Sequence record: QB031380.1
Origin: a phage
DNA length: 44,130 bases
Direction: 5' to 3' (one strand)
Under the pieces are notes generated by a model. It had not been told where the DNA came from. It worked only from the letters and a program-made list of their open reading frames with translations, and did no database searches. The position numbers and the translations under genes were made by a program. Each line of letters starts with the position of its first letter. Within the stretch, counting starts at the first letter, position 1. This document shows, piece after piece, positions 2,107 through 44,130 of this stretch.

Positions 2107-2341
2107 AGTATTTGCGATCTTATTGATGTTTTTGCTCGGCGCGCTGGGCTTTATCCTGCATTGCGTGCAAGGCGTGTTAATGGTTGCGTGGATGATTCGC
2201 CATCCGACCCGCTGGCTGGATGACGGCTACAGCACCATCGCCGTGGCGTGGATTGCGAGACATGGCGACCGACCGCCGTTAAGCTGGATCGAGAACGCAA
2301 CCAACTACGTGACCAGAAATCTTTTTAATGAAAGTGCTTGA
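2099..2341 (+). CDS. small membrane protein
   Basis: 80 aa; hydrophobic N-terminus (AILLMFLLGALGFIL); ATG overlaps the upstream stop (ATGA). Confidence 0.45.
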   Translation: MNKVFAILLMFLLGALGFILHCVQGVLMVAWMIRHPTRWLDDGYSTIAVAWIARHGDRPPLSWIENATNYVTRNLFNESA

Positions 2342-2366
2342 CCGCTTAGGCGCAACCAAGTAGATT
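2338..2366 (+). promoter_or_regulatory. sigma70-like promoter TTGACC-N17-TAGATT with GCAACCAAG elements
   Basis: -35/-10 hexamers with 17 bp spacing; GCAACCAAG occurs in the spacer and again just after the -10. Confidence 0.4.
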
Positions 2367-8923: not shown

Positions 8924-8928
8924 ATTGG

Positions 8929-8957
8929 TTGCATAATCATATTGGTTGCATTATATT
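8929..8957 (+). promoter_or_regulatory. sigma70-like promoter TTGCAT-N17-TATATT embedded in two ATTGGTTGCAT copies
   Basis: Hexamers and spacing read directly; motif copies at about 8924-8934 and 8941-8951. Confidence 0.45.
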
Positions 8958-10146: not shown

Positions 10147-10613
10147 AACTACTTATTTGTGATCTGGATGGCGTTATTAATGGTTCAAGCGATGCGCGTG
10201 CCGACCTGGTGCCAGGGATAAAAACGAAATCCACCTTTTGGGCGAAGTGGCACAAAGCGCACGTCCGCGAAGACCTGAACATGGATATGCTGCCGCTGCT
10301 GCGCATGTATAAAGAGCAAGGCTTCGAGATCGCGTATCTGACCAACCGGCAGCGCGAATGCTGGGACACCACCGCCGAGCAATTGGAGGTCTTCCCGGTA
10401 GGCCGGTTGTTTATGCGCCACATGCTGGATGACACCCCGCCGCCAGAGTTTAAGGCGTGCGCCGTGTTCAAAATGGTCTGCTACGCGGACGTGTCGGAAC
10501 TGGTCATCATTGAAGATTGCGAGAAGAACATCGCGGCGATTCGTCGGGCGTGTGGTGATTTGGTCCCGAAAATTTACGCAATAAACGTTGCAAAATTCAC
10601 TTGCAACCAATAG
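10143..10613 (+). CDS. HAD-superfamily hydrolase-like protein
   Basis: N-terminal LICDLDGVI (HAD motif I DxDG), YLTNR (motif II), EDCEKN region. Confidence 0.5.
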   Translation: MKLLICDLDGVINGSSDARADLVPGIKTKSTFWAKWHKAHVREDLNMDMLPLLRMYKEQGFEIAYLTNRQRECWDTTAEQLEVFPVGRLFMRHMLDDTPPPEFKACAVFKMVCYADVSELVIIEDCEKNIAAIRRACGDLVPKIYAINVAKFTCNQ

Positions 10614-10631
10614 GTTGGTTGCACTATAGTA
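10602..10631 (+). promoter_or_regulatory. promoter-like TTGCAA-N18-TATAGT spanning palindrome TGCAACCAA-tagg-TTGGTTGCA
   Basis: Perfect inverted repeat of the 9-mer overlapping the hexamers. Confidence 0.4.
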
Positions 10632-17700: not shown

Positions 17701-18234
17701 ATCGCGCTCGTATAGCGACATTGTTTTACCAACGGCAGCGAAGGTAAACTCACGCGGGTCCGCGTTATCCGTATACACAACGATCTTATAGTCGATGCGC
17801 CCGCCCACCAGGTCGCCATTATCTTCGTTTGTGTACAGGGCCGGAATGCCGATGCGAATGCGCACGGCGTCCAAACTGGTGTCGTTAATCTGGCGCACCC
17901 ACGGCGTGCCGTTCTCCAGTTTTACGCCTACAGATTGCTCACTTTCCACCGCTGAAAATCCGTGGATCACATCCTGGTGCTGTGTTCCGGGGCGGAACTC
18001 CACACGCGCGCCGGGGAAGTTTTCAGACAGGTCTGCATTCTGGATCGGTGTTCCGTCCAGATATACGCGCCGCCGTAATTCGTTAGGGTCTGGAATACCT
18101 TCGAACTCACCTTCTCCCAGCGCGAGCAAGATGCGGATTTTAGCCAGCGAATGCAGGCTATCGGGCGTCTCCTGTGGGGTGTGCTGTTTGCCGCCGCCGC
18201 CTTTATGGCCCGTGACGTCGTAGATAATCGTCAT
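14788..18234 (-). CDS. J: central tail fibre / host specificity protein (lambda J-like)
   Basis: 1148 aa; N-terminus resembles lambda J; follows I/K/L genes in canonical order. Confidence 0.85.
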   Translation of the reverse strand: MTIIYDVTGHKGGGGKQHTPQETPDSLHSLAKIRILLALGEGEFEGIPDPNELRRRVYLDGTPIQNADLSENFPGARVEFRPGTQHQDVIHGFSAVESEQSVGVKLENGTPWVRQINDTSLDAVRIRIGIPALYTNEDNGDLVGGRIDYKIVVYTDNADPREFTFAAVGKTMSLYERDHRIELPPNVNTGWRVEVHRITADSTSAKVVNDIQVQSITEIIDARLRYPLTALLFVEFDAKAFQNIPRVSIKCKGRKVLIPNNYDPINHTYSGDWDGTFKRAWTDNPAWHWYDICITERFGLGRRIKPQMLNRYALYQIAQRCDQLVSDGNGGREIRFKNDMYIQSQTDAWTVLKDLAAIFAGMTWWGNQMLNIVSDQPVAAVSHTITNASVIDGRFDYASGSQKTRYSTFAVAYGNPKNHYDDAIATGQRVELVRRHKINRLDITAIGCTRESEAQRRGHWALISNQLDQQVSFKVGMEGLFFIPGSVVAIADTNISGGFETRGGRLLSDPGTRIVLNTDSEITFRPGDKFLVRTDSGNVETREIASVNGNKVTLKTALDADPIPDQPFCVDGDDIQLQKFRITDLEYDDSTSTFSVRGIEYNDSKYDAVDNGARLDPGIFTQVPDGVMKGPESVTITPSQISSQGQLITNVDIVFPPVKDAVVYEIQWRRTSLQNMEIQWGNDWVNIPRTASNGAHIPNVFSGNYQARVRAIGMGEISSPWVSSAITPVEGRLGGLNAPIITNAISGLHQILWKWNHNNAATDISYTELEVRKTGETEWKFLTNVPYPGAEYAQTSLEFGIYQQLRARVADKIGNLSDWSAPFEGQVSDKVDEYMKGLDDEFLSSEDGKHFQEAIDTIPQGIYEAMLTDAQQLFNARAEYKGIYAEISVAYNVAADAHKAVAQLETLIGTRLDDAEAAIHTLQTAQSTHEQAFAQYQQTVAAKFGEQEAAIQQVQTATADVAGALAEYKTQVAAQFGQQSAAIEQKMTSTFNHAGGSATYSLKAGVTYNGTYYDAGMQLSVVAEGGAVKSRIAFKADQFYIMHPSNGSLSSAFIVDGGQVYIDTARIKNASINFAQITDTLQSNNWNPGSSGWRIAKDGGAEFNNVTVRGNLFATTGNFGFSGGSVTIDSTGVNVPLPGGGRVKVGTW

Positions 18235-18848
18235 TCGTTCAAATCCTCGGTTACGATTCCGGCTGAAATAATAGCGCCGCCGATCTCACGCTCGCCCCAT
18301 AATACACCAAGCGCCGTACCTTGCGCGGTCGTGTTTACAGGGCCGCCGAACGCATACGACGCTTTGTTATCCACGTCCTGCCGGGTCTGCAATCCTTTCG
18401 GCTGCGGCGACAGCAATTGCATAACGCCACCCAGCGCCATCGACATGCCGAACGAAAACGTCGCTGTCCCAATAGCGGCAGCGGTTGCAGCCGAAGCCCC
18501 AAAAGCGGCAGTAGCAAGTCCGCCGGTATAGAACGACGCCACTACAATCGCGACACCCGCCAGCAATTGGCCCAGTCCGCTTTTTGCCCCCGTCATAACC
18601 GGCGCGATGGTAACGACGCGGTTGCCGTGGAACTCGCCTAGCTCATCATAGCCGGTCATTGTGTGGTTGCCTTTGCGCACCTTGAACATCATGTTGTCCA
18701 GGTGGGCCGACATTAAAAAGTCTTGTAAGCCTGGTAACTTCACGCACAGGCCGGTGATGCCTTCGCCCGGTGTGAAGCAGTCCAGCTTATGCACTTTACC
18801 AAAACGACGCCCTAAGACGCCGTACAATTTAAACGTGGTCATTGCCAT
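18231..18848 (-). CDS. I: tail assembly protein (lambda I-like)
   Basis: 205 aa; Gly/Ala-rich hydrophobic C-terminus; position between K and J. Confidence 0.75.
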   Translation of the reverse strand: MAMTTFKLYGVLGRRFGKVHKLDCFTPGEGITGLCVKLPGLQDFLMSAHLDNMMFKVRKGNHTMTGYDELGEFHGNRVVTIAPVMTGAKSGLGQLLAGVAIVVASFYTGGLATAAFGASAATAAAIGTATFSFGMSMALGGVMQLLSPQPKGLQTRQDVDNKASYAFGGPVNTTAQGTALGVLWGEREIGGAIISAGIVTEDLNE

Positions 18849-19579
18849 TCTGTGATATTCCCCGGTAGGTCTTTATGACGTACCCATTTAACCACATTGT
18901 CGCGGAAAAATCCTGACCGGAAGGGTATCACGCTCGACAGACTGCCGTAGATATGGTGTAGTAGTTGGTTGCCTGGAAGGAATATCCCTGCGTGGTTTGG
19001 CACTGGTGCGCTAATCTGCATAATTACCATTGCCCCCGGCGTATTTTCCTCACACTCCCTGAAGCCCGCGCCGTACCAATTATCCATATACAGATTTTCG
19101 CCTGTCTCCCACCAGTTATACGGCACGCGGAAGTCTGGCAGGTTTACACCCTGCTTTTTGTGCCAGTCCATGACGAGGCCGTAACAATCCGTAATTCCGA
19201 GAACAAATCGACGCCCCACCAGCGGCGGGTCTTCAGGGTCGATCTCGATAAAGTCGCCATATTCGTTAGTGATGGTCCAGACTACGCCGCTGCCGTTGCA
19301 TCCGTTAACGTCGCCCAATGACGGGGTCAGAACGCGCTGACCTGGGTGCGAGTGGACTACGCGCACGACGTCGCCCATATCCTCCGCATCCATCCAGGCC
19401 ATATCACTAATCGTGAACGCGTCTTTGCGTGAGCGCACGCCGGTAGGGTCTTCGAATACGTTCGGGCACGGGACAAATACTTGTTTGCGGCCCACCAAGA
19501 CGACCAGCCCACAGGCTTCTTCCGGCAGACATGCCGCAACGTGCGCGGCGATATCGCTTTTAACCTTTTTCGTTAACAT
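18839..19579 (-). CDS. K: tail assembly protein (lambda K-like, MPN/JAB plus NlpC/P60)
   Basis: HSHPG JAB-type motif; real start taken as the ATG overlapping the L stop. Confidence 0.75.
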   Translation of the reverse strand: MLTKKVKSDIAAHVAACLPEEACGLVVLVGRKQVFVPCPNVFEDPTGVRSRKDAFTISDMAWMDAEDMGDVVRVVHSHPGQRVLTPSLGDVNGCNGSGVVWTITNEYGDFIEIDPEDPPLVGRRFVLGITDCYGLVMDWHKKQGVNLPDFRVPYNWWETGENLYMDNWYGAGFRECEENTPGAMVIMQISAPVPNHAGIFLPGNQLLHHIYGSLSSVIPFRSGFFRDNVVKWVRHKDLPGNITEWQ

Positions 19580-19581
19580 GG

Positions 19582-20370
19582 CTACCCCTTGATCAATTTG
19601 GACCCAGGAAATCCACCGAAGTCCAGCACTGCAGCTTTCGGATCGGCAAGCCCCTGACCAAAACGAAGATAACAATCAGACAGGCAACCGCCACAGCGGT
19701 CCATATCCATCGCAATGACTTCGTTCCCACGTTCGTCGTAATACTTGATCCCAGGCTTCGCAAGGTTCCATGTACACCCGTCCCCGCTGGCGTACTTCCC
19801 GTTGAGCGCCCATTCGCACATATTCATGATTTGGCGACGGGGGATGACCTGCCCTTCCATATCCGCGGGGGAGGATAACGCAAAGGTGATTTGCTTGCCC
19901 GGATTGCGCCCGACCTGCGAGTCGATGTAATACTCCTGAACTCGTTTCTGCGTCGGGTCCGGGTCAGTCCCGTTGTCCAAGAACTTCGCGAACGTATCAA
20001 TGATCTCAACCTTCGCGCCCAGTAGCTGGTCGTGATTCAGCGACAGCCGGGTGATTACGCCGCCAATATCGACAATGGTCAGCTGCGGTTCCGCTGCCGT
20101 TGACGTGGAGAAGTTGAGGCCGGACAAATCGAAGGGCCAAAATTCGAACTCCTGCCCGCCGAAGAAGATTGATTTAGGTTTTAGCTTATCCTCGTCACCC
20201 CCAGCGGCAGCAATATCCTCGTCAGTGTGCGGAATAAAGCAGTAGTGGAAATAGTGATGGCCCGCGCCGATCGCACCGTCTCCTGGCTCCACGTCCTGCG
20301 CGTCAATGTGAATCAGGCGAACGCGGCCCGATGGGTCAAAGCGCGTCGCCTCACGATATAATTTATTCAT
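19582..20370 (-). CDS. L: minor tail protein (lambda L-like)
   Basis: 262 aa; C-terminal Cys cluster CGGCLSDC; canonical position. Confidence 0.75.
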   Translation of the reverse strand: MNKLYREATRFDPSGRVRLIHIDAQDVEPGDGAIGAGHHYFHYCFIPHTDEDIAAAGGDEDKLKPKSIFFGGQEFEFWPFDLSGLNFSTSTAAEPQLTIVDIGGVITRLSLNHDQLLGAKVEIIDTFAKFLDNGTDPDPTQKRVQEYYIDSQVGRNPGKQITFALSSPADMEGQVIPRRQIMNMCEWALNGKYASGDGCTWNLAKPGIKYYDERGNEVIAMDMDRCGGCLSDCYLRFGQGLADPKAAVLDFGGFPGSKLIKG

Positions 20371-20966
20371 CTTACAAATCCGATAGCAGTCTTAAGGGTG
20401 GCGGATACCGTTGCCGTGTAGTGTCCGTTGTCAGTGTACGACAAGCTCGAACGCTCGACCACGAATAAACCTGTCTCGCCATCCGGCGCGGTGACGATGA
20501 ACGGTTTTACAAAGTGCCCGCGAAGGAAGTTGTAAACCAGCTTAGGGTTACACCACTTGTCGGTAGTCAGTCCGACGAATTGCACGGGGAATTGTTTAGT
20601 TTCGGCGTTCGGGCCGTCCGCGATGTTCTGTCCGTAGCCATTACCGAATTGCAATTCTTCCGACCGGAAAGCTAACTGCACGTCGCCGCCGCCCTGCAAT
20701 TGCATGTGCCAGTAATAGGGCCATTCGTTTGATCGCGGGTCGTGTGCTTCGATTAGCTCATATGCCGCACCGGATTTCGTGGGGCCGGCCCAGTTATCCG
20801 CCAGGGTGATTTCTGTATCCGAGTTGAATGCGGCTATTTTGCCGGTGTAGTCGTTGCCGTCGATGCGGGCGAATACGCGGACCTTCCCGATCTCGCTCAA
20901 GAACGCCGTCCCCGCGCCCGTTACGGTCTTACTTCCGTTCGCTAGTGTGATTGTACCTTGTGACAT
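20367..20966 (-). CDS. minor tail protein (M-position)
   Basis: 199 aa ORF between tape measure and L; assigned by synteny. Confidence 0.5.
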   Translation of the reverse strand: MSQGTITLANGSKTVTGAGTAFLSEIGKVRVFARIDGNDYTGKIAAFNSDTEITLADNWAGPTKSGAAYELIEAHDPRSNEWPYYWHMQLQGGGDVQLAFRSEELQFGNGYGQNIADGPNAETKQFPVQFVGLTTDKWCNPKLVYNFLRGHFVKPFIVTAPDGETGLFVVERSSLSYTDNGHYTATVSATLKTAIGFVR

Positions 20967-23710: not shown

Positions 23711-24030
23711 TATTCAGTCTCAGACGAGGGGGGCCATTGACCCCCGTCTAGTCTGAAAGACTGGGGGTTGTCCCGCCTGTCCCGATCGGCTAAAACCCGC
23801 GGCAGCACTGACGGGGACAGGGGTGCTGTCCCGCTTTGTCCCGCCTCATTCTGTCCCGCTTTTTGTCCCGCTTACTTTATGCAGAAAAACCGCATAGCTA
23901 TTCACTTTAAGGGGCGGGACAGATCGGGACAGCACCCCTGTCACGCTTTTAGTTTATGCAATGAAAGTGAGTATATATGCGGTTTTAATGGTGGCGGGAT
24001 AAAACGGTACGTCCCGCCTGTCCCGCTTCG
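23711..24030. repeat. Iteron-rich intergenic element, copy 1 (GTCCCGC in both orientations, GC hairpin, AT-rich segment)
   Basis: At least 10 GTCCCGC/GCGGGAC heptamers; 23711-23884 is near-identical to 40531-40705. Confidence 0.8.
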
Positions 24031-29589: not shown

Positions 29590-29619
29590 TTGCACTGCGG
29601 GAATTGGTTGCGCTATATT
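29590..29619 (+). promoter_or_regulatory. sigma70-like promoter TTGCAC-N18-TATATT with GGTTGC elements
   Basis: Hexamers read directly; ATTGGTTGCGC in the spacer and GGTTGCAC just after the -10. Confidence 0.45.
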
Positions 29620-29648
29620 GGTTGCACACCAACAACGAGGACACAAAA

Positions 29649-30413
29649 ATGAGACTGACGAAAGATATTAAAAATCAGATTCTGGCTAACATCCTGCGCG
29701 ACCACGAAATCGCTACCGAAGCCAAACAAATCATGATGGACTCACGCGATCTGGCGTACGCAATCACGCTGGACTGTATGCCGGAAGGCATTCGCACGTT
29801 CGCAGCGCTCCGCGAGCGTATCGAGGCAATCAGCGATGACCCGTCGCAGATGTACGGCGTCAGCGTTTACACCAACAAGGCGACGTATAGTTATAACACC
29901 GACCGTCCGAAGGGCATCGGCAGCGTCTATAACGCCACCTTTGAAATCAACGCAGGTGGCAATGTTCGCACCTTGTCATTGAGCGGCGACGGTCGCCAAC
30001 ACCGCATACATCGCGGGTACTGGGAAGAGAAATATATGAATAAGCTATCCCCCGATCTCGGCGATATCGTTCCAGGGTTCGAGTCAGTTATGCTCGCGTC
30101 AGTGTGTGAAGTGGACGAGGACGGGAAAGCGTTGCCGATATATCTTCCACGCGGTCGCGTAGACTACCCGGAAGATCATGATTTCTGTAAGCGCCTGGAC
30201 CGCAACGACAAGGCCCGTCGCGAGTTGCGCGCGAAGTATGATGCGTTCAAACTCACCGTTACCGGTGTGCTGGACCTGCACAACACTGACAAGAAGCTGA
30301 TTAAGGCATGGCCTGAAGTTGAGCAATTCATCCCATACCCGGACAAGCCAAAATCCACGGCGGTGGCGCTGGATGTGAAAACGCTCAACGAGATTTGCGG
30401 CATTCCGCGCTAA
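29649..30413 (+). CDS. hypothetical protein on the opposite strand within the head operon, with own promoter and terminator
   Basis: ATG with GAGGA RBS; about 254 aa; flanked by a promoter and a terminator. Confidence 0.55.
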   Translation: MRLTKDIKNQILANILRDHEIATEAKQIMMDSRDLAYAITLDCMPEGIRTFAALRERIEAISDDPSQMYGVSVYTNKATYSYNTDRPKGIGSVYNATFEINAGGNVRTLSLSGDGRQHRIHRGYWEEKYMNKLSPDLGDIVPGFESVMLASVCEVDEDGKALPIYLPRGRVDYPEDHDFCKRLDRNDKARRELRAKYDAFKLTVTGVLDLHNTDKKLIKAWPEVEQFIPYPDKPKSTAVALDVKTLNEICGIPR

Positions 30414-36886: not shown

Positions 36887-36947
36887 ATTTAATTAATTCC
36901 TGATTAGTGGACCGTGGACAATATACCACGGTCCATATGGTGGCGGG

Positions 36948-37028
36948 CTATATCAATTCGCAAATAACCATGCCGATGAAAGCCGCGGTGGTCCAGATTG
37001 CTAATACCCAAATATCGTTACGTGTCAT
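36948..37028 (-). CDS. putative 26 aa hydrophobic peptide
   Basis: ATG preceded by AAGAGGAG RBS; peptide MTRNDIWVLAIWTTAAFIGMVICELI. Confidence 0.25.
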   Translation of the reverse strand: MTRNDIWVLAIWTTAAFIGMVICELI

Positions 37029-37091
37029 CTTGATTACTCCTCTTATTGGTTGGTTGCAGTATGGCCCCTATGTTGGTTGCAAGTCAAGCAA

Positions 37092-37125
37092 TAAAAAGCC
37101 CGGTATTATCCGGGCTTGTTGGTTT
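37092..37125. terminator. bidirectional terminator
   Basis: AAAAA-GCCCGG-tattat-CCGGGC-TTGTTGGTTT. Confidence 0.55.
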
Positions 37126-40319: not shown

Positions 40320-40347
40320 CGTTCAGTCCTCATGTTGGTGTGCAACC

Positions 40348-40376
40348 AATCTAGCAGGGTGCTGGCTCGAATGCAA
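40348..40376 (-). promoter_or_regulatory. sigma70-like promoter TTGCAT-N17-TAGATT flanked by TTGGTTGCA elements
   Basis: Minus strand reads ATTGGTTGCAT...TAGATTGGTTGCAC. Confidence 0.45.
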
Positions 40377-40530: not shown

Positions 40531-40705
40531 TTATGCAGTCTCAGACGAGGGGGGCCATTGACCCCCGTCTAGTCTGAAAGACTGGGAGTTGTCCCGCCTG
40601 TCCCGCTCCTCGCCAGGCCGCGTCATCCGGGGCGGGACAGGGGTGCTGTCCCGCTTTGTCCCGCCCTTGGTCTGTCCCGCTTTTTGTCCCGCTTACTTTA
40701 TGCAG
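40531..40705. repeat. Iteron-rich intergenic element, copy 2
   Basis: Near-identical to 23711-23884; bounded by TTATGCAG at both ends; about 8 GTCCCGC/GCGGGAC heptamers. Confidence 0.8.
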
Positions 40706-40798: not shown

Positions 40799-43063
40799 TT
40801 AATCTTTCAGGTCGTCATCGGTAGCTGAAAGCGTTATGGGGATATCCGATTTGATGACTAAATTCGACGACCCATATATGGCCCCGGTGTGCGGATCTGT
40901 ATAAAAACCAATCACGCCGCGCTCGACCATATCGTCGATTGCCTTCGTCGAAGTACCACCCTTAGCGAGTCCCGCCTGGCGGACAATTGCCGATTTACTG
41001 AATCCAGTATGGTCCGGGTTATCTTCCATCAGTTTTTCCAGGGCCGCATAAAGCACTTTCTCTTTTTCGTTGCGCGGTCCGGCGGCGTTTTCTTCCTTAA
41101 CTGCAGCTTTGCCCGCGGCCTTCGCCTGTTCGATGGCGAACGGTGCCAGGGCGACCGGTACGAGGTACAGAGTCTCGTCGCGTGGCGTGGACGCAATTGG
41201 TTTAACGTCCCAACCGGCAACTACGTCGCCGAAGTCCGGCCCGGTGCTGGTGGACTGGTGCGACGCGAACGCTTCTGACTTGCGGAGATCTACCTTCACC
41301 TTGCACTTGAGCAGGACGAAGCCACGCGGCGCTTGCTTGATGCCATTACGTGATTTTTCGTGATACAGGTTAAGTTGTCCCGGCTGGTTGTCGTCCGGCT
41401 GTTCCAGGAAGAAAGCGGAATCGACAGCACCATGCAGTGCGCCGGACCCACGGGGAGATCTGCTACCGTTTGCACCCTTCGCAGGGTGGTGGATGACGCC
41501 CGCACTGCCGCCTGTGTTTTCCGCGATGGCTTTTAGCGCTTTAACCACTTCGCCCATATCGCTGGCGTTGTTCTCGTCAAACGGTTTAGCATCGGCGGAC
41601 CGCAGCGCAACAGTCTGGTTGAGTGAGTCGAACGCCACCAGGCCAACAGGTTCGCCGTTAGCGGTGCGGTTGATAAAGCTGATAACTTCGCGCAAACCGG
41701 ACTTGCTGGTGATATCCCAGCCGCGGGACTGCAGGTCTATAATGTGCAGCTTGTCCAGGTCGTGCTCGTATTTAATCTGCAATGCTTCTTTGCGCTGGTT
41801 GGAGGCTTCGCCGCCTTCCGCATCAAAATAGAAGCAATGCGACTGGACTACCTTCGCACCACCAAACGGAATACCAGCGGCAACCGCACCCATCTGCCCC
41901 AGCACGTAGAAGGACTTACCTATGTTCGACTCGCCCGCCATATACCAGGTCGATTTGAAGTTAATCAGCCCTTCGATGATCGGGTCGTGCTTGCTGAACA
42001 GTGCGACCGGCTCGTTATCCAGGTCTGCGTCCGTACATTCGCCGTATTCTTCGCCGTCGCCAACCGCATCAACAATATGATCATATAAGGATTCGACTTC
42101 CTCGTCGTCCAGACCTGGCAGGATGGCGGCGATTTGCTTACGTGACATGTTGTGTGGCTCGACGTTCAGGTGGTCCGGGATACCGATAAGACGTAGCGCC
42201 AGGTGCTGGTGTCTATTCAGCTCCGAGCAACACTCGTTGCCTGTGTGCATACACTTGAAACGGATCTCGCCATCCTTAACCATGATAGCCGTCGACCCTT
42301 CGCCGCTGTGCAGATGTTCGTTCGGGCACGGCACTTCATAACCGCGACCGGATGATAACTCCTCGAATCCTGCCTGGAAGCACCAGTCCAGAATGCCGTC
42401 TGCCACTGCGTCGTCGCCCTGGGTAAGCTCGCGGCGTACTTCCTCTTTCTCCACCCCCAGCTTGTCAGCCAGGCGGAGCAGACGCCGCACATTTGCACGT
42501 TTGCCGTAGTGACACTTAATGACAGACTGCTGGTGTGGCAGGTACATAAGACGGTTTGTGTCCTTCGTACAATCGTCGAAGTCCACATCTGACAGGCCCA
42601 GTTGGTGTAATAGCGCATACTGGACACGGCCCAGGTCTTCCGCCGGGACAGGCTTGTCAGTGAGTACCAGGAAGCGAGCGCAACGCGTTCCGCCTTTCAG
42701 TGGGTGGCGGTCGCCGGTGGTTGTGTGGAATACGTGCTCCAGCCCCGCGTCGATGAAAGCCTTACGGCAGCGGCGTAGGGTGCGGGTGTCGGTACGGTCA
42801 ATATCGAAGAACAGGATCGAGCGGTCCACCGCACTGGTCTTGCGGCGTAAGCCGTCACTGGTATACGCCACGATGCCATCGGCCTTACGCTTGCGGCGTG
42901 CATACTCGGCTTTATCTTCCGTCTTGTTGATATGCACCGAGGAGATTTCTTTCGCATCATTGATAAATTCGAAAAATTCATCGGTGGTCATCTGGAAGTT
43001 TTCCGCCCTGGCTTTTTCGCCTTTTTTAGCGGGTCTTGTTACAGCGAATTTAATTAAGCTCAT
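40799..43063 (-). CDS. DNA primase/helicase (primase-like N-terminal region plus RecA-like ATPase)
   Basis: 754 aa; Walker A GESNIGKS; Cys-rich middle segment. Confidence 0.65.
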   Translation of the reverse strand: MSLIKFAVTRPAKKGEKARAENFQMTTDEFFEFINDAKEISSVHINKTEDKAEYARRKRKADGIVAYTSDGLRRKTSAVDRSILFFDIDRTDTRTLRRCRKAFIDAGLEHVFHTTTGDRHPLKGGTRCARFLVLTDKPVPAEDLGRVQYALLHQLGLSDVDFDDCTKDTNRLMYLPHQQSVIKCHYGKRANVRRLLRLADKLGVEKEEVRRELTQGDDAVADGILDWCFQAGFEELSSGRGYEVPCPNEHLHSGEGSTAIMVKDGEIRFKCMHTGNECCSELNRHQHLALRLIGIPDHLNVEPHNMSRKQIAAILPGLDDEEVESLYDHIVDAVGDGEEYGECTDADLDNEPVALFSKHDPIIEGLINFKSTWYMAGESNIGKSFYVLGQMGAVAAGIPFGGAKVVQSHCFYFDAEGGEASNQRKEALQIKYEHDLDKLHIIDLQSRGWDITSKSGLREVISFINRTANGEPVGLVAFDSLNQTVALRSADAKPFDENNASDMGEVVKALKAIAENTGGSAGVIHHPAKGANGSRSPRGSGALHGAVDSAFFLEQPDDNQPGQLNLYHEKSRNGIKQAPRGFVLLKCKVKVDLRKSEAFASHQSTSTGPDFGDVVAGWDVKPIASTPRDETLYLVPVALAPFAIEQAKAAGKAAVKEENAAGPRNEKEKVLYAALEKLMEDNPDHTGFSKSAIVRQAGLAKGGTSTKAIDDMVERGVIGFYTDPHTGAIYGSSNLVIKSDIPITLSATDDDLKD

Positions 43064-43073
43064 TGCCGTGGCC

Positions 43074-43403
43074 TTACTTAGAAGTTTTATTATTGCGTAC
43101 CCATGAGCGCACTGTGCTCTGATTAATTCCTGTCAACTCAGCGATCATTGCCCAGGATTTGCCCTCGGCGCGCAAACGGATAACCTGTTTTTTGTATTCT
43201 TCCATTTCTTCATTGTGCTTTTGCAGCTTGCTGGCTGCCGTACCGTTGAGCAATTCCAGCCTGGCGCGTAATTCTTTTTCTACACTGCGCAGGCGCTCGA
43301 CCTCAAATAGCACCGCACCCACGGCATCGGTATACGCCCAGGACCGGCTTGTCTCACTGCAAACAGTCTTAGTTAACATTTCTATTGCGTCGTTTACATT
43401 CAT
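43074..43403 (-). CDS. HTH DNA-binding regulator
   Basis: 109 aa; C-terminal GKSWAMIAELTGINQSTVRSW helix-turn-helix; GAGGA RBS. Confidence 0.6.
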   Translation of the reverse strand: MNVNDAIEMLTKTVCSETSRSWAYTDAVGAVLFEVERLRSVEKELRARLELLNGTAASKLQKHNEEMEEYKKQVIRLRAEGKSWAMIAELTGINQSTVRSWVRNNKTSK

Positions 43404-43434
43404 TGCTCTGTCCTCGGTTGGTTAATGACCAACG

Positions 43435-43463
43435 AAGCTACACCTAAAACCGCAGGGTGTCAA
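43435..43463 (-). promoter_or_regulatory. sigma70-like promoter TTGACA-N17-TAGCTT for the HTH regulator gene
   Basis: Perfect -35 hexamer; palindrome CGTTGGT-catta-ACCAACG lies between the -10 and the RBS. Confidence 0.5.
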
Positions 43464-43476
43464 CTTCTTTGGAATA

Positions 43477-43504
43477 TTGAAACGGGCGCGCACGCGTGTA
43501 ATAA
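43477..43504 (+). promoter_or_regulatory. sigma70-like promoter TTGAAA-N16-TG-TAATAAT, divergent from the regulator promoter
   Basis: Hexamers and extended -10 TG read directly. Confidence 0.45.
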
Positions 43505-43532
43505 TACCCCCGTCTCATTGTCTCTTATTGGT

Positions 43533-43569
43533 TAGCGCCGTCGCATTTTGCTTCGGCGCTTTTTTTTTG
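43533..43569 (+). terminator. Rho-independent terminator
   Basis: AGCGCCG...CGGCGCT stem followed by a run of nine T. Confidence 0.6.
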
Positions 43570-43579
43570 AAATTAGTTG

Positions 43580-43608
43580 TTGACTCCCTCATGCAACCAA
43601 TCTAATAT
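43580..43608 (+). promoter_or_regulatory. sigma70-like promoter TTGACT-N17-TAATAT with TGCAACCAA in the spacer
   Basis: Hexamers and motif read directly; about 200 nt upstream of the ATG at 43805. Confidence 0.45.
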
Positions 43609-43804: not shown

Positions 43805-44130
43805 ATGTTTGAGCAAATCGTAAACCTGATCACTCGCGGCGTAGTAGCACTGGAAACCATCGCAAAACATTATGAAACCGTGGGCGCTGCCGTTGGTAAG
43901 CAGGAAGACAAGAAGCCGTCTAAGGCCAAAAAAGAAGTTGTCGAAGATGACGACGCTGAAGACGAAGCACCGGCGAAAACCAAAAAAGCACCGGCGAAAG
44001 GTAAGGCCAAAAAAGAAGTCGTAGAGGATGACGACGAGGATGAATCCGAAGACGAAAAACCGGCGAAGGGTAAAAAAGCACCCGCGAAAGGCAAAGGTAA
44101 GAAAGATGCCGATCCGCTAGCAGAGATGCG
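43805..44130 (+). CDS. N-terminal part of an acidic/Lys-rich repeat protein (runs off the window end)
   Basis: ATG with GGAGA RBS; repeats of KKEVVEDDD and KAPAKGK; no stop before the window end; not in the ORF track. Confidence 0.5.
   Translation, partial: MFEQIVNLITRGVVALETIAKHYETVGAAVGKQEDKKPSKAKKEVVEDDDAEDEAPAKTKKAPAKGKAKKEVVEDDDEDESEDEKPAKGKKAPAKGKGKKDADPLAEM

Follow-up and report, generated by a model that had tools for sequence, protein, structure and literature searches.

A conserved dyad on the predicted start site of the gp48-gp47 operon of a Dhillonvirus and gp48 as candidate for its binding

Introduction

Does a small helix-turn-helix (HTH) protein of a phage bind a palindrome in its own promoter and thereby control its own operon? 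This question is raised by the region upstream of gp48 in sequence record QB031380.1, a DNA of 44,130 nucleotides that was analysed as a whole and is called the window here. By protein mapping against Escherichia phage PC2, the window is the near-complete genome of an E. coli Dhillonvirus. PC2 is matched at 95% over the region searched, and the 176 phage records matched in all are Dhillonvirus nearly throughout. Two records named after other hosts, OQ221563.1 (Acinetobacter phage NJ01) and MG065648.1 (Campylobacter phage A144), share about 94% identity with the window over a 2.1-kb query; probably they were assigned to the wrong host or derive from contaminated samples. Dhillonviruses are common among the phages of E. 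coli and are present in current phage-defence and host-range studies. In the literature on these phages nothing was found on their promoters, on the recurrent TTGGTTGC motif described below or on the function of gp48.

Results

The gp48-gp47 locus

The gene of the HTH protein is followed by that of a replication enzyme in the same operon:

43074..43403, minus strand: gp48, HTH protein of 109 aa, first gene of the gp48-gp47 operon
40799..43063, minus strand: gp47, primase-helicase (AAA_25), begins 10 nt past the gp48 stop

The order gp48-gp47 is kept in all five divergent-lineage contigs with gene calls or ORFs that were examined. On the other side of a divergent intergenic region of 401 bp, which contains the dyad, gp49 starts at 43805 on the plus strand. 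It opens the divergent early operon and is cut by the window end (43805-44130). In its product, Lys/Ala/Pro/Glu-rich KKAPAKGKAKKE-like repeats come after a short, structured N-terminal part; the protein may bind DNA non-specifically or act as a mimic. The intergenic region also holds a promoter-like sequence TTGAAA-17-AATAAT (10/12, with TG) and then a strong terminator hairpin (-16.2 kcal/mol, z -3.2) at 43477-43569 on the plus strand, so that between gp48 and gp49 an RNA of about 55 nt would be made. This layout is kept in five divergent lineages with unrelated stems and a conserved TCATTG box; no Rfam match was obtained for the element.

Anatomy of the gp48 promoter and the dyad

The following elements precede gp48:

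43458..43463, minus strand: -35 hexamer TTGACA of the gp48-gp47 operon promoter, read directly, 6/6 to consensus
43435..43440, minus strand: -10 hexamer TAGCTT, 3/6 to consensus, 17 nt past the -35
43417..43433, both strands: dyad GTTGGT-CATTA-ACCAAC, conserved core TTGGT-N5-ACCAA at 43418-43432
43411..43415, minus strand: Shine-Dalgarno sequence GAGGA, 7 nt ahead of the ATG (43403), with one c between ACCAAC and GAGGA

The initial annotation had placed TTGACA-N17-TAGCTT on the minus strand upstream of the 109 aa HTH gene, and the hexamers are present there as described. It had also called the promoter strong. This holds for the -35 (6/6) and the 17-nt spacer, but not for the -10 with three matches out of six, so that 'strong' says too much. 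The -10 retains T-12, A-11 and T-7 of the sigma-70 consensus. Among 21 distinct relatives the -35 TTGACA is invariant and the -10 reads TAGTTT (also 3/6), TAGATT or TAGCTT. The gp48 promoter is missing from our consensus promoter scan because its -10 matches in only three positions.

A palindrome between the -10 and the ribosome-binding site of the HTH gene had likewise been proposed, and a conserved dyad is indeed found there. On the minus strand it consists of GTTGGT (43433-43428), CATTA (43427-43423) and ACCAAC (43422-43417), with a c ahead of GTTGGT. The arms are thus 6 bp long instead of the 7 bp (CGTTGGT/ACCAACG) described before, as the base following ACCAAC is C and not G. In relatives even the sixth pair is broken, A or T replacing the G ahead of TTGGT; hence the conserved dyad is TTGGT-N5-ACCAA with 5-bp arms. 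It sits 2-3 nt past the -10. The predicted +1 of the transcript, 43428 +/-2, lies within the left arm, and relative to it the dyad extends from about -5 to +12. The plus strand across the dyad reads GTTGGTTAATGACCAAC, and divergent lineages carry GCAACCAA at the same place, in agreement with the earlier proposal that the arms match the core of a recurrent promoter motif.

Conservation and chance expectation of the dyad

The 16-nt element TTGGTCATTAACCAAC has only one variable column among 21 distinct relatives. This lone variation is an A-to-G exchange in one distinct sequence (L012 and L027), and the 5-nt centre CATTA does not vary at all. In the same relatives 9 of the 17 columns of the promoter spacer are variable, and the 12-13 nt ahead of the gp48 ATG occur in 12 distinct versions. 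The genome has three exact copies of TTGGT-N5-ACCAA; 300 first-order simulations gave 0.05 on average and never more than 1. TTGGT alone is not enriched (50 + 51 copies). All three copies are located between a -10-like hexamer and the ribosome-binding site, those of gp31, gp46 and gp48. The two sister sites are:

29618..29633, plus strand: dyad TTGGTTGCAcACCAAC, overlaps the -10 (TATATT) and the start site of the gp31 (Nmad5) promoter
40334..40349, minus strand: dyad TTGGTTGCAcACCAAC, overlaps the -10 (TAGATT) and the start site of the gp46 promoter

Both consist of the full motif followed by c-ACCAAC. Judged from these comparisons, the gp48 dyad is real and under selection. As a side observation, gp31 (29649-30413, plus strand), the gene behind one of the three dyad-bearing promoters, encodes a nucleotide modification associated domain 5 protein (Nmad5, E 8e-59).

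The recurrent motif in promoter-like sites

TTGGTTGCA occurs 12 times in the genome, 0.46 copies being expected, and TTGGTTGC 23 times, with 14 of these copies intergenic. The motif is 8-9 bp long; its conserved part is TTGGTTGC, and the ninth and tenth base vary. Promoters were scanned for TTG-type -35 hexamers plus -10 hexamers above a score threshold. Nine motif-bearing promoter-like sites were detected by the scan, ten counting the gp46 promoter, which is just under the threshold. The motif lies in either orientation in one of three slots: -39..-32 (TTGCAn as -35), -22..-15 (within the spacer) and about -8..+2. In several sites it forms the -35 as TTGCA(T/A/C) at a spacing of 17-18 nt. Such a placement in fixed promoter slots is expected of DNA-binding regulator sites, not of polymerase contacts.

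Motif sites are located upstream of the gp49-exonuclease, ssDNA-binding protein/polymerase and helicase blocks and of gp08, gp11, gp31 and gp46. A further motif-bearing promoter-like site leads into the terminase block with packaging and structural genes, so that a general promoter factor fits as well as a repressor. Five of the promoters are:

43580..43608, plus strand: divergent gp49 promoter TTGACT-17-TAATAT, with a reverse motif TGCAACCAA (43592-43600) in the spacer
2338..2366, plus strand: TTGACC-17-TAGATT, reverse motifs in the spacer and just past the -10, upstream of the ssDNA-binding protein gene
8925..8957, plus strand: gp08 promoter, one motif as -35 (TTGCAT), a second one filling the spacer, then TATATT
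10601..10630, plus strand: gp11 promoter with the inverted motif pair TGCAACCAA-tagg-TTGGTTGCA
37058..37087, minus strand: TTGACT-18-CATACT, reverse motifs in the spacer and at the start site

In the gp49 promoter spacer GCAACCAAT is invariant in six lineages, and the -35 there is near-consensus TTGAC(T/G). The motif at 43592-43600 was also considered as a minus-strand -35 of gp48; this was dropped, since it belongs in the spacer of the plus-strand gp49 promoter. The promoter at 37058..37087 precedes an ORF of 26 aa and the gp38-terminase block. At 36937-37119 the annotations are in conflict: PC2 has a plus-strand gene of 60 aa, whereas we find on the minus strand this hydrophobic 26-aa ORF (36948-37028), with a good ribosome site and the motif-bearing promoter.

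Most motif copies are single and not dyads; thus, a dimer on a palindrome cannot be the general binding mode. When viral contigs were searched for pairs of the motif (TTGGTTGC-N5-30-TTGGTTGCA), the matches were mostly in unrelated contigs and too unspecific to show a joint occurrence of motif and gp48 beyond the genus. A sigma-54 promoter, for which the GG/GC spacing is off by one, and a host CytR half-site GTTGCATT were considered and set aside, the conserved part being TTGGTTGC.

In five divergent lineages the gp48 leader reads TTG(A/C)nn-17-TATATT-N9-GCAACCAA, with the ribosome site next. GCAACCAA is the reverse complement of TTGGTTGC and has the homologous position to the gp48 dyad; by position, the right arm of the dyad is therefore a degenerate reverse copy of the motif. 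The gp48 proteins of the same five lineages have a different N-terminus and the same C-terminus. TTGGT-N5-ACCAA was not found in the four divergent-lineage contigs scanned; on this sampling the palindromic form is confined to the lineage with the 109-aa gp48.

The gp48 protein

Three Pfam profiles match gp48 above their cut-offs: HTH_23 with 30.9 bits (cut-off 24.6, E 2.3e-7), HTH_28 with 28.4 bits (cut-off 25) and Sigma70_r4_2 with 27.7 bits (cut-off 25.7). The sigma-region-4-like similarity covers residues 61-103, TIGR02937 being below its cut-off. With 109 residues gp48 is too short for region 2 and hence not a sigma factor. The AF2 model (pLDDT 84) consists of a short helix, a helix of 59 residues (21-79) and a C-terminal HTH (84-107). 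From residue 47 to 106 the protein hardly varies among 21 family members. Its first ~45 residues, by contrast, are hypervariable in the family and come in at least three unrelated versions, which suggests a lineage-specific partner of the N-terminus. The gp48 of phage KarlBarth is 100% identical to that of the window. The family is narrow; its 24 clusters are all from Dhillonvirus-like contigs.

Searches for a characterised relative, by sequence profile in the PDB and by Foldseek against PDB and viral models, gave generic HTH matches only; the Foldseek matches to DNA-bound HTH domains were weak (E about 1). For the Cro/CI/Ner group, HTH_3 scored 17.7 bits at a cut-off of 23, and no match to Cro or Ner was obtained. 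The database names of gp48 differ among records (transposase, resolvase, Gam nuclease inhibitor). A transposase or resolvase is not supported, as a catalytic domain (DDE, serine recombinase) is absent in the 109 aa and HTH_7 and HTH_Tnp_1 are below cut-off; for the Gam inhibitor no Gam match was found at E<=1.

Altogether 22 proteins were scanned with Pfam: gp48, gp47 and 20 further phage proteins. Pfam recognised an HTH in none of them besides gp48, and no Pfam match at all was obtained for gp50, gp51, gp53, gp04, gp06, gp08, gp12, gp39, gp44, gp45, gp46 and gp37.

A second repeat family beside gp47

The window contains a second repeat, GCGGGACA, with 18 exact copies against 2.0 expected, in two similar clusters (23769-24026 and 40590-40692). 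One cluster lies just 3' of gp47 beside an AT-rich stretch and looks like an origin. In divergent lineages GCGGGACA is replaced by GGTGCCA (L031, L032) or GTGTGGCA (L033). The C-terminal part of gp47 is lineage-variable as well (50-66% identity to the window), including a helix-like SAIVRQAG (window form). Such a co-varying C-terminus would fit gp47 as the reader of the GCGGGACA iterons. Only one fragment was retrieved when the last 170 aa of gp47 served as query for homologues.

TTGGTTGC and the gp48 HTH are constant across the lineages in which GCGGGACA changes. This speaks against the iterons as targets of the gp48 HTH and is consistent with a reading of TTGGTTGC by gp48. The idea that TTGGTTGC itself is an origin iteron bound by the primase-helicase was rejected, since the clustered iterons are the lineage-variable GCGGGACA, which is unlike TTGGTTGC. 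Two copies of TTGGTTGCC flank the AT-rich, iteron-bearing region 3' of gp47.

A natural exchange of gp48 in phage CHD5UKE2

In phage CHD5UKE2 (L017, NC_073059.1) a module is exchanged at 17928-20700. It begins just past the -10, includes gp48 and ends near residue 200 of gp47; over the remainder of the helicase the identity to the window is 90-100%, mostly 94-100%. The replacement of gp48 has 149 aa, and its HTH is 47% identical to that of gp48. The replaced leader (5'UTR) is free of the motif, while every other motif copy is still present. The remaining copies would then be read either by the replacement protein or by another factor. The recognition helix is STIRQW compared with STVRSW in gp48; S, T, R and W are kept, so the CHD5UKE2 protein may read the same sequence.

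Discussion

In our interpretation the dyad is probably a DNA operator of the TTGGTTGC family, placed on the start site of the gp48-gp47 operon. Its location across the predicted start site would be that of repressor operators, and a DNA operator fits this position better than an RNA hairpin. As to the protein, gp48 is the best candidate for binding dyad and motif. The case is circumstantial: gp48 has the only HTH recognised by Pfam among the 22 proteins scanned, and the invariance of its HTH mirrors that of the motif. That gp48 itself binds the dyad and represses its own operon is put forward tentatively, with a chance that we place a little short of even. We infer the start site, the action at DNA level, gp48 as binder, its dimerisation and the sign of the regulation.

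The proposed course of events is as follows. Early on, the host sigma-70 RNA polymerase would transcribe the operon from TTGACA-17-TAG(C/T)TT, a promoter without the motif in its -35 and spacer. As gp48 builds up, it would dimerise, probably via its long helix, and place its invariant C-terminal HTH on the two TTGGT half-sites with centres 10 bp apart. Bound gp48 would prevent open-complex formation or promoter escape and so exert negative feedback on gp48 and the replication enzyme. At other promoters it might also act on TTGGTTGC in the -35, spacer and start-site slots, as a general regulator of early transcription comparable to lambda Cro or Mu Ner.

A different binder would explain the same sites. 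Dyad and TTGGTTGC could be operators for another small phage protein or a host protein, the operon then being regulated but not autoregulated, and gp48 could do something else, e.g. loading or targeting of the primase-helicase. The persistence of all other motif copies in CHD5UKE2 despite the replacement of gp48 points in this direction, as does the presence of about a dozen small proteins without a domain recognisable by Pfam. A role of gp48 beside gp47 would agree with the conserved order of the two genes, with the joint exchange of gp48 and the first ~200 residues of gp47 and with the TTGGTTGCC copies on both sides of the iteron-bearing region. Against it, gp48 alone among the proteins scanned has a recognised sequence-specific DNA-binding fold, its HTH and the motif are invariant in parallel, and the similar recognition helix in CHD5UKE2 may read the same sequence. 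We consider another binder rather unlikely. It is improbable that no dedicated binder exists and that the host RNA polymerase or the ribosome reads TTGGTTGC and its derivatives as sequence preferences of this phage lineage in promoters and leaders, with TTGCAn as -35, ACCAAC as a leader element and an incidental symmetry of the gp48 dyad. The motif does serve as -35 TTGCA(T/A/C) with 17-18 nt spacing in several promoter-like sites, TTGGT alone is not enriched, and the palindromic form occurs in one lineage only. However, the motif is also found in spacers and start sites in both orientations, where the polymerase makes no such demand on the sequence; six lineages have an unchanged GCAACCAAT in the gp49 spacer beside a near-consensus -35, and it is very unlikely that three independent exact dyads arose by chance.

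An effect at the RNA level was considered as well. A 5' stem-loop UUGGU-CAUUA-ACCAA by the Shine-Dalgarno sequence could stabilise the transcript or tune translation. Its stem has -6.3 kcal/mol within a leader of 31 nt, the only natural variant (A to G, L012 and L027) retains a U-G pair, and ACCAA(C) stands 1-3 nt ahead of the ribosome site of gp31, gp46 and gp48, with ACCAA also near that of gp49. Nevertheless, the fold is no better than that of shuffles (z -1.4 and -0.9), and no more than -3.0 kcal/mol is reached at the sister sites. The left arm overlaps the -10 (gp31, gp46) or the predicted +1 (gp48), so that the full hairpin is expected to be absent from the transcript. A simple hairpin would not require the invariance seen in the loop CATTA, divergent lineages are without the complementary arm, and Rfam searches gave no match. 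We therefore regard an RNA element as very improbable. Quite improbable, too, is gp48 as a promoter-specificity factor, i.e. not a simple repressor but a free-standing sigma-region-4-like module that would read TTGGTTGC in the -35, spacer and start-site slots of about ten phage promoter-like sites and whose hypervariable N-terminus would contact a lineage-specific partner such as the primase-helicase. If true, this would couple transcription control to replication.

For gp48 as a repressor of its own operon the expected biology is conventional; an ordinary autoregulatory operator is plausible. An 8-9 bp motif at about ten promoter-like sites together with one candidate regulator is a testable map of the transcription programme of these phages, and also a handle for engineering expression.

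Three known systems can be compared. With region 4 of ECF sigma factors and with T4 MotA the system shares the profile similarities of the gp48 HTH, which are best to sigma-70 region 4, and the motif at the exact -35 position in several promoter-like sites. In contrast to sigma factors, gp48 has 109 residues and no region 2, and it is not similar to T4 MotA or AsiA. Furthermore, the motif is found in spacer and start site, where a reader of the -35 would not act.

Plasmid Rep proteins, such as RepE of F and RepA of pSC101, recognise two kinds of sites: direct iterons at the origin and, at the promoter of their own gene, an inverted repeat composed of partial iterons. Here, too, an inverted repeat made from part of a recurrent motif lies on the promoter of an operon with a replication enzyme, and motif copies flank the iteron-bearing, AT-rich region 3' of gp47. 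However, the clustered iterons are the lineage-variable GCGGGACA, a sequence different from TTGGTTGC, and TTGGTTGC is dispersed over about ten promoter-like sites and not gathered at one origin. gp48 is without a match to a Rep family.

Lambda Cro and Mu Ner, both small HTH proteins, lower the activity of early lytic promoters, their own among them. By sequence gp48 is outside of both families, and its predicted fold of a long helix plus HTH differs from theirs. Unlike the 17-bp dyads of lambda Cro, the sites of this phage are mostly single motifs of 8-9 bp in either orientation, and, unlike in lambda, there is no recognisable lysogeny module. In common with Cro and Ner, gp48 is a small HTH protein encoded by the first gene of an early operon running into replication genes, the dyads overlap core promoter elements, and several candidate operators are spread across the early region. 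By this analogy the predicted outcome for gp48 would be the same, negative feedback.
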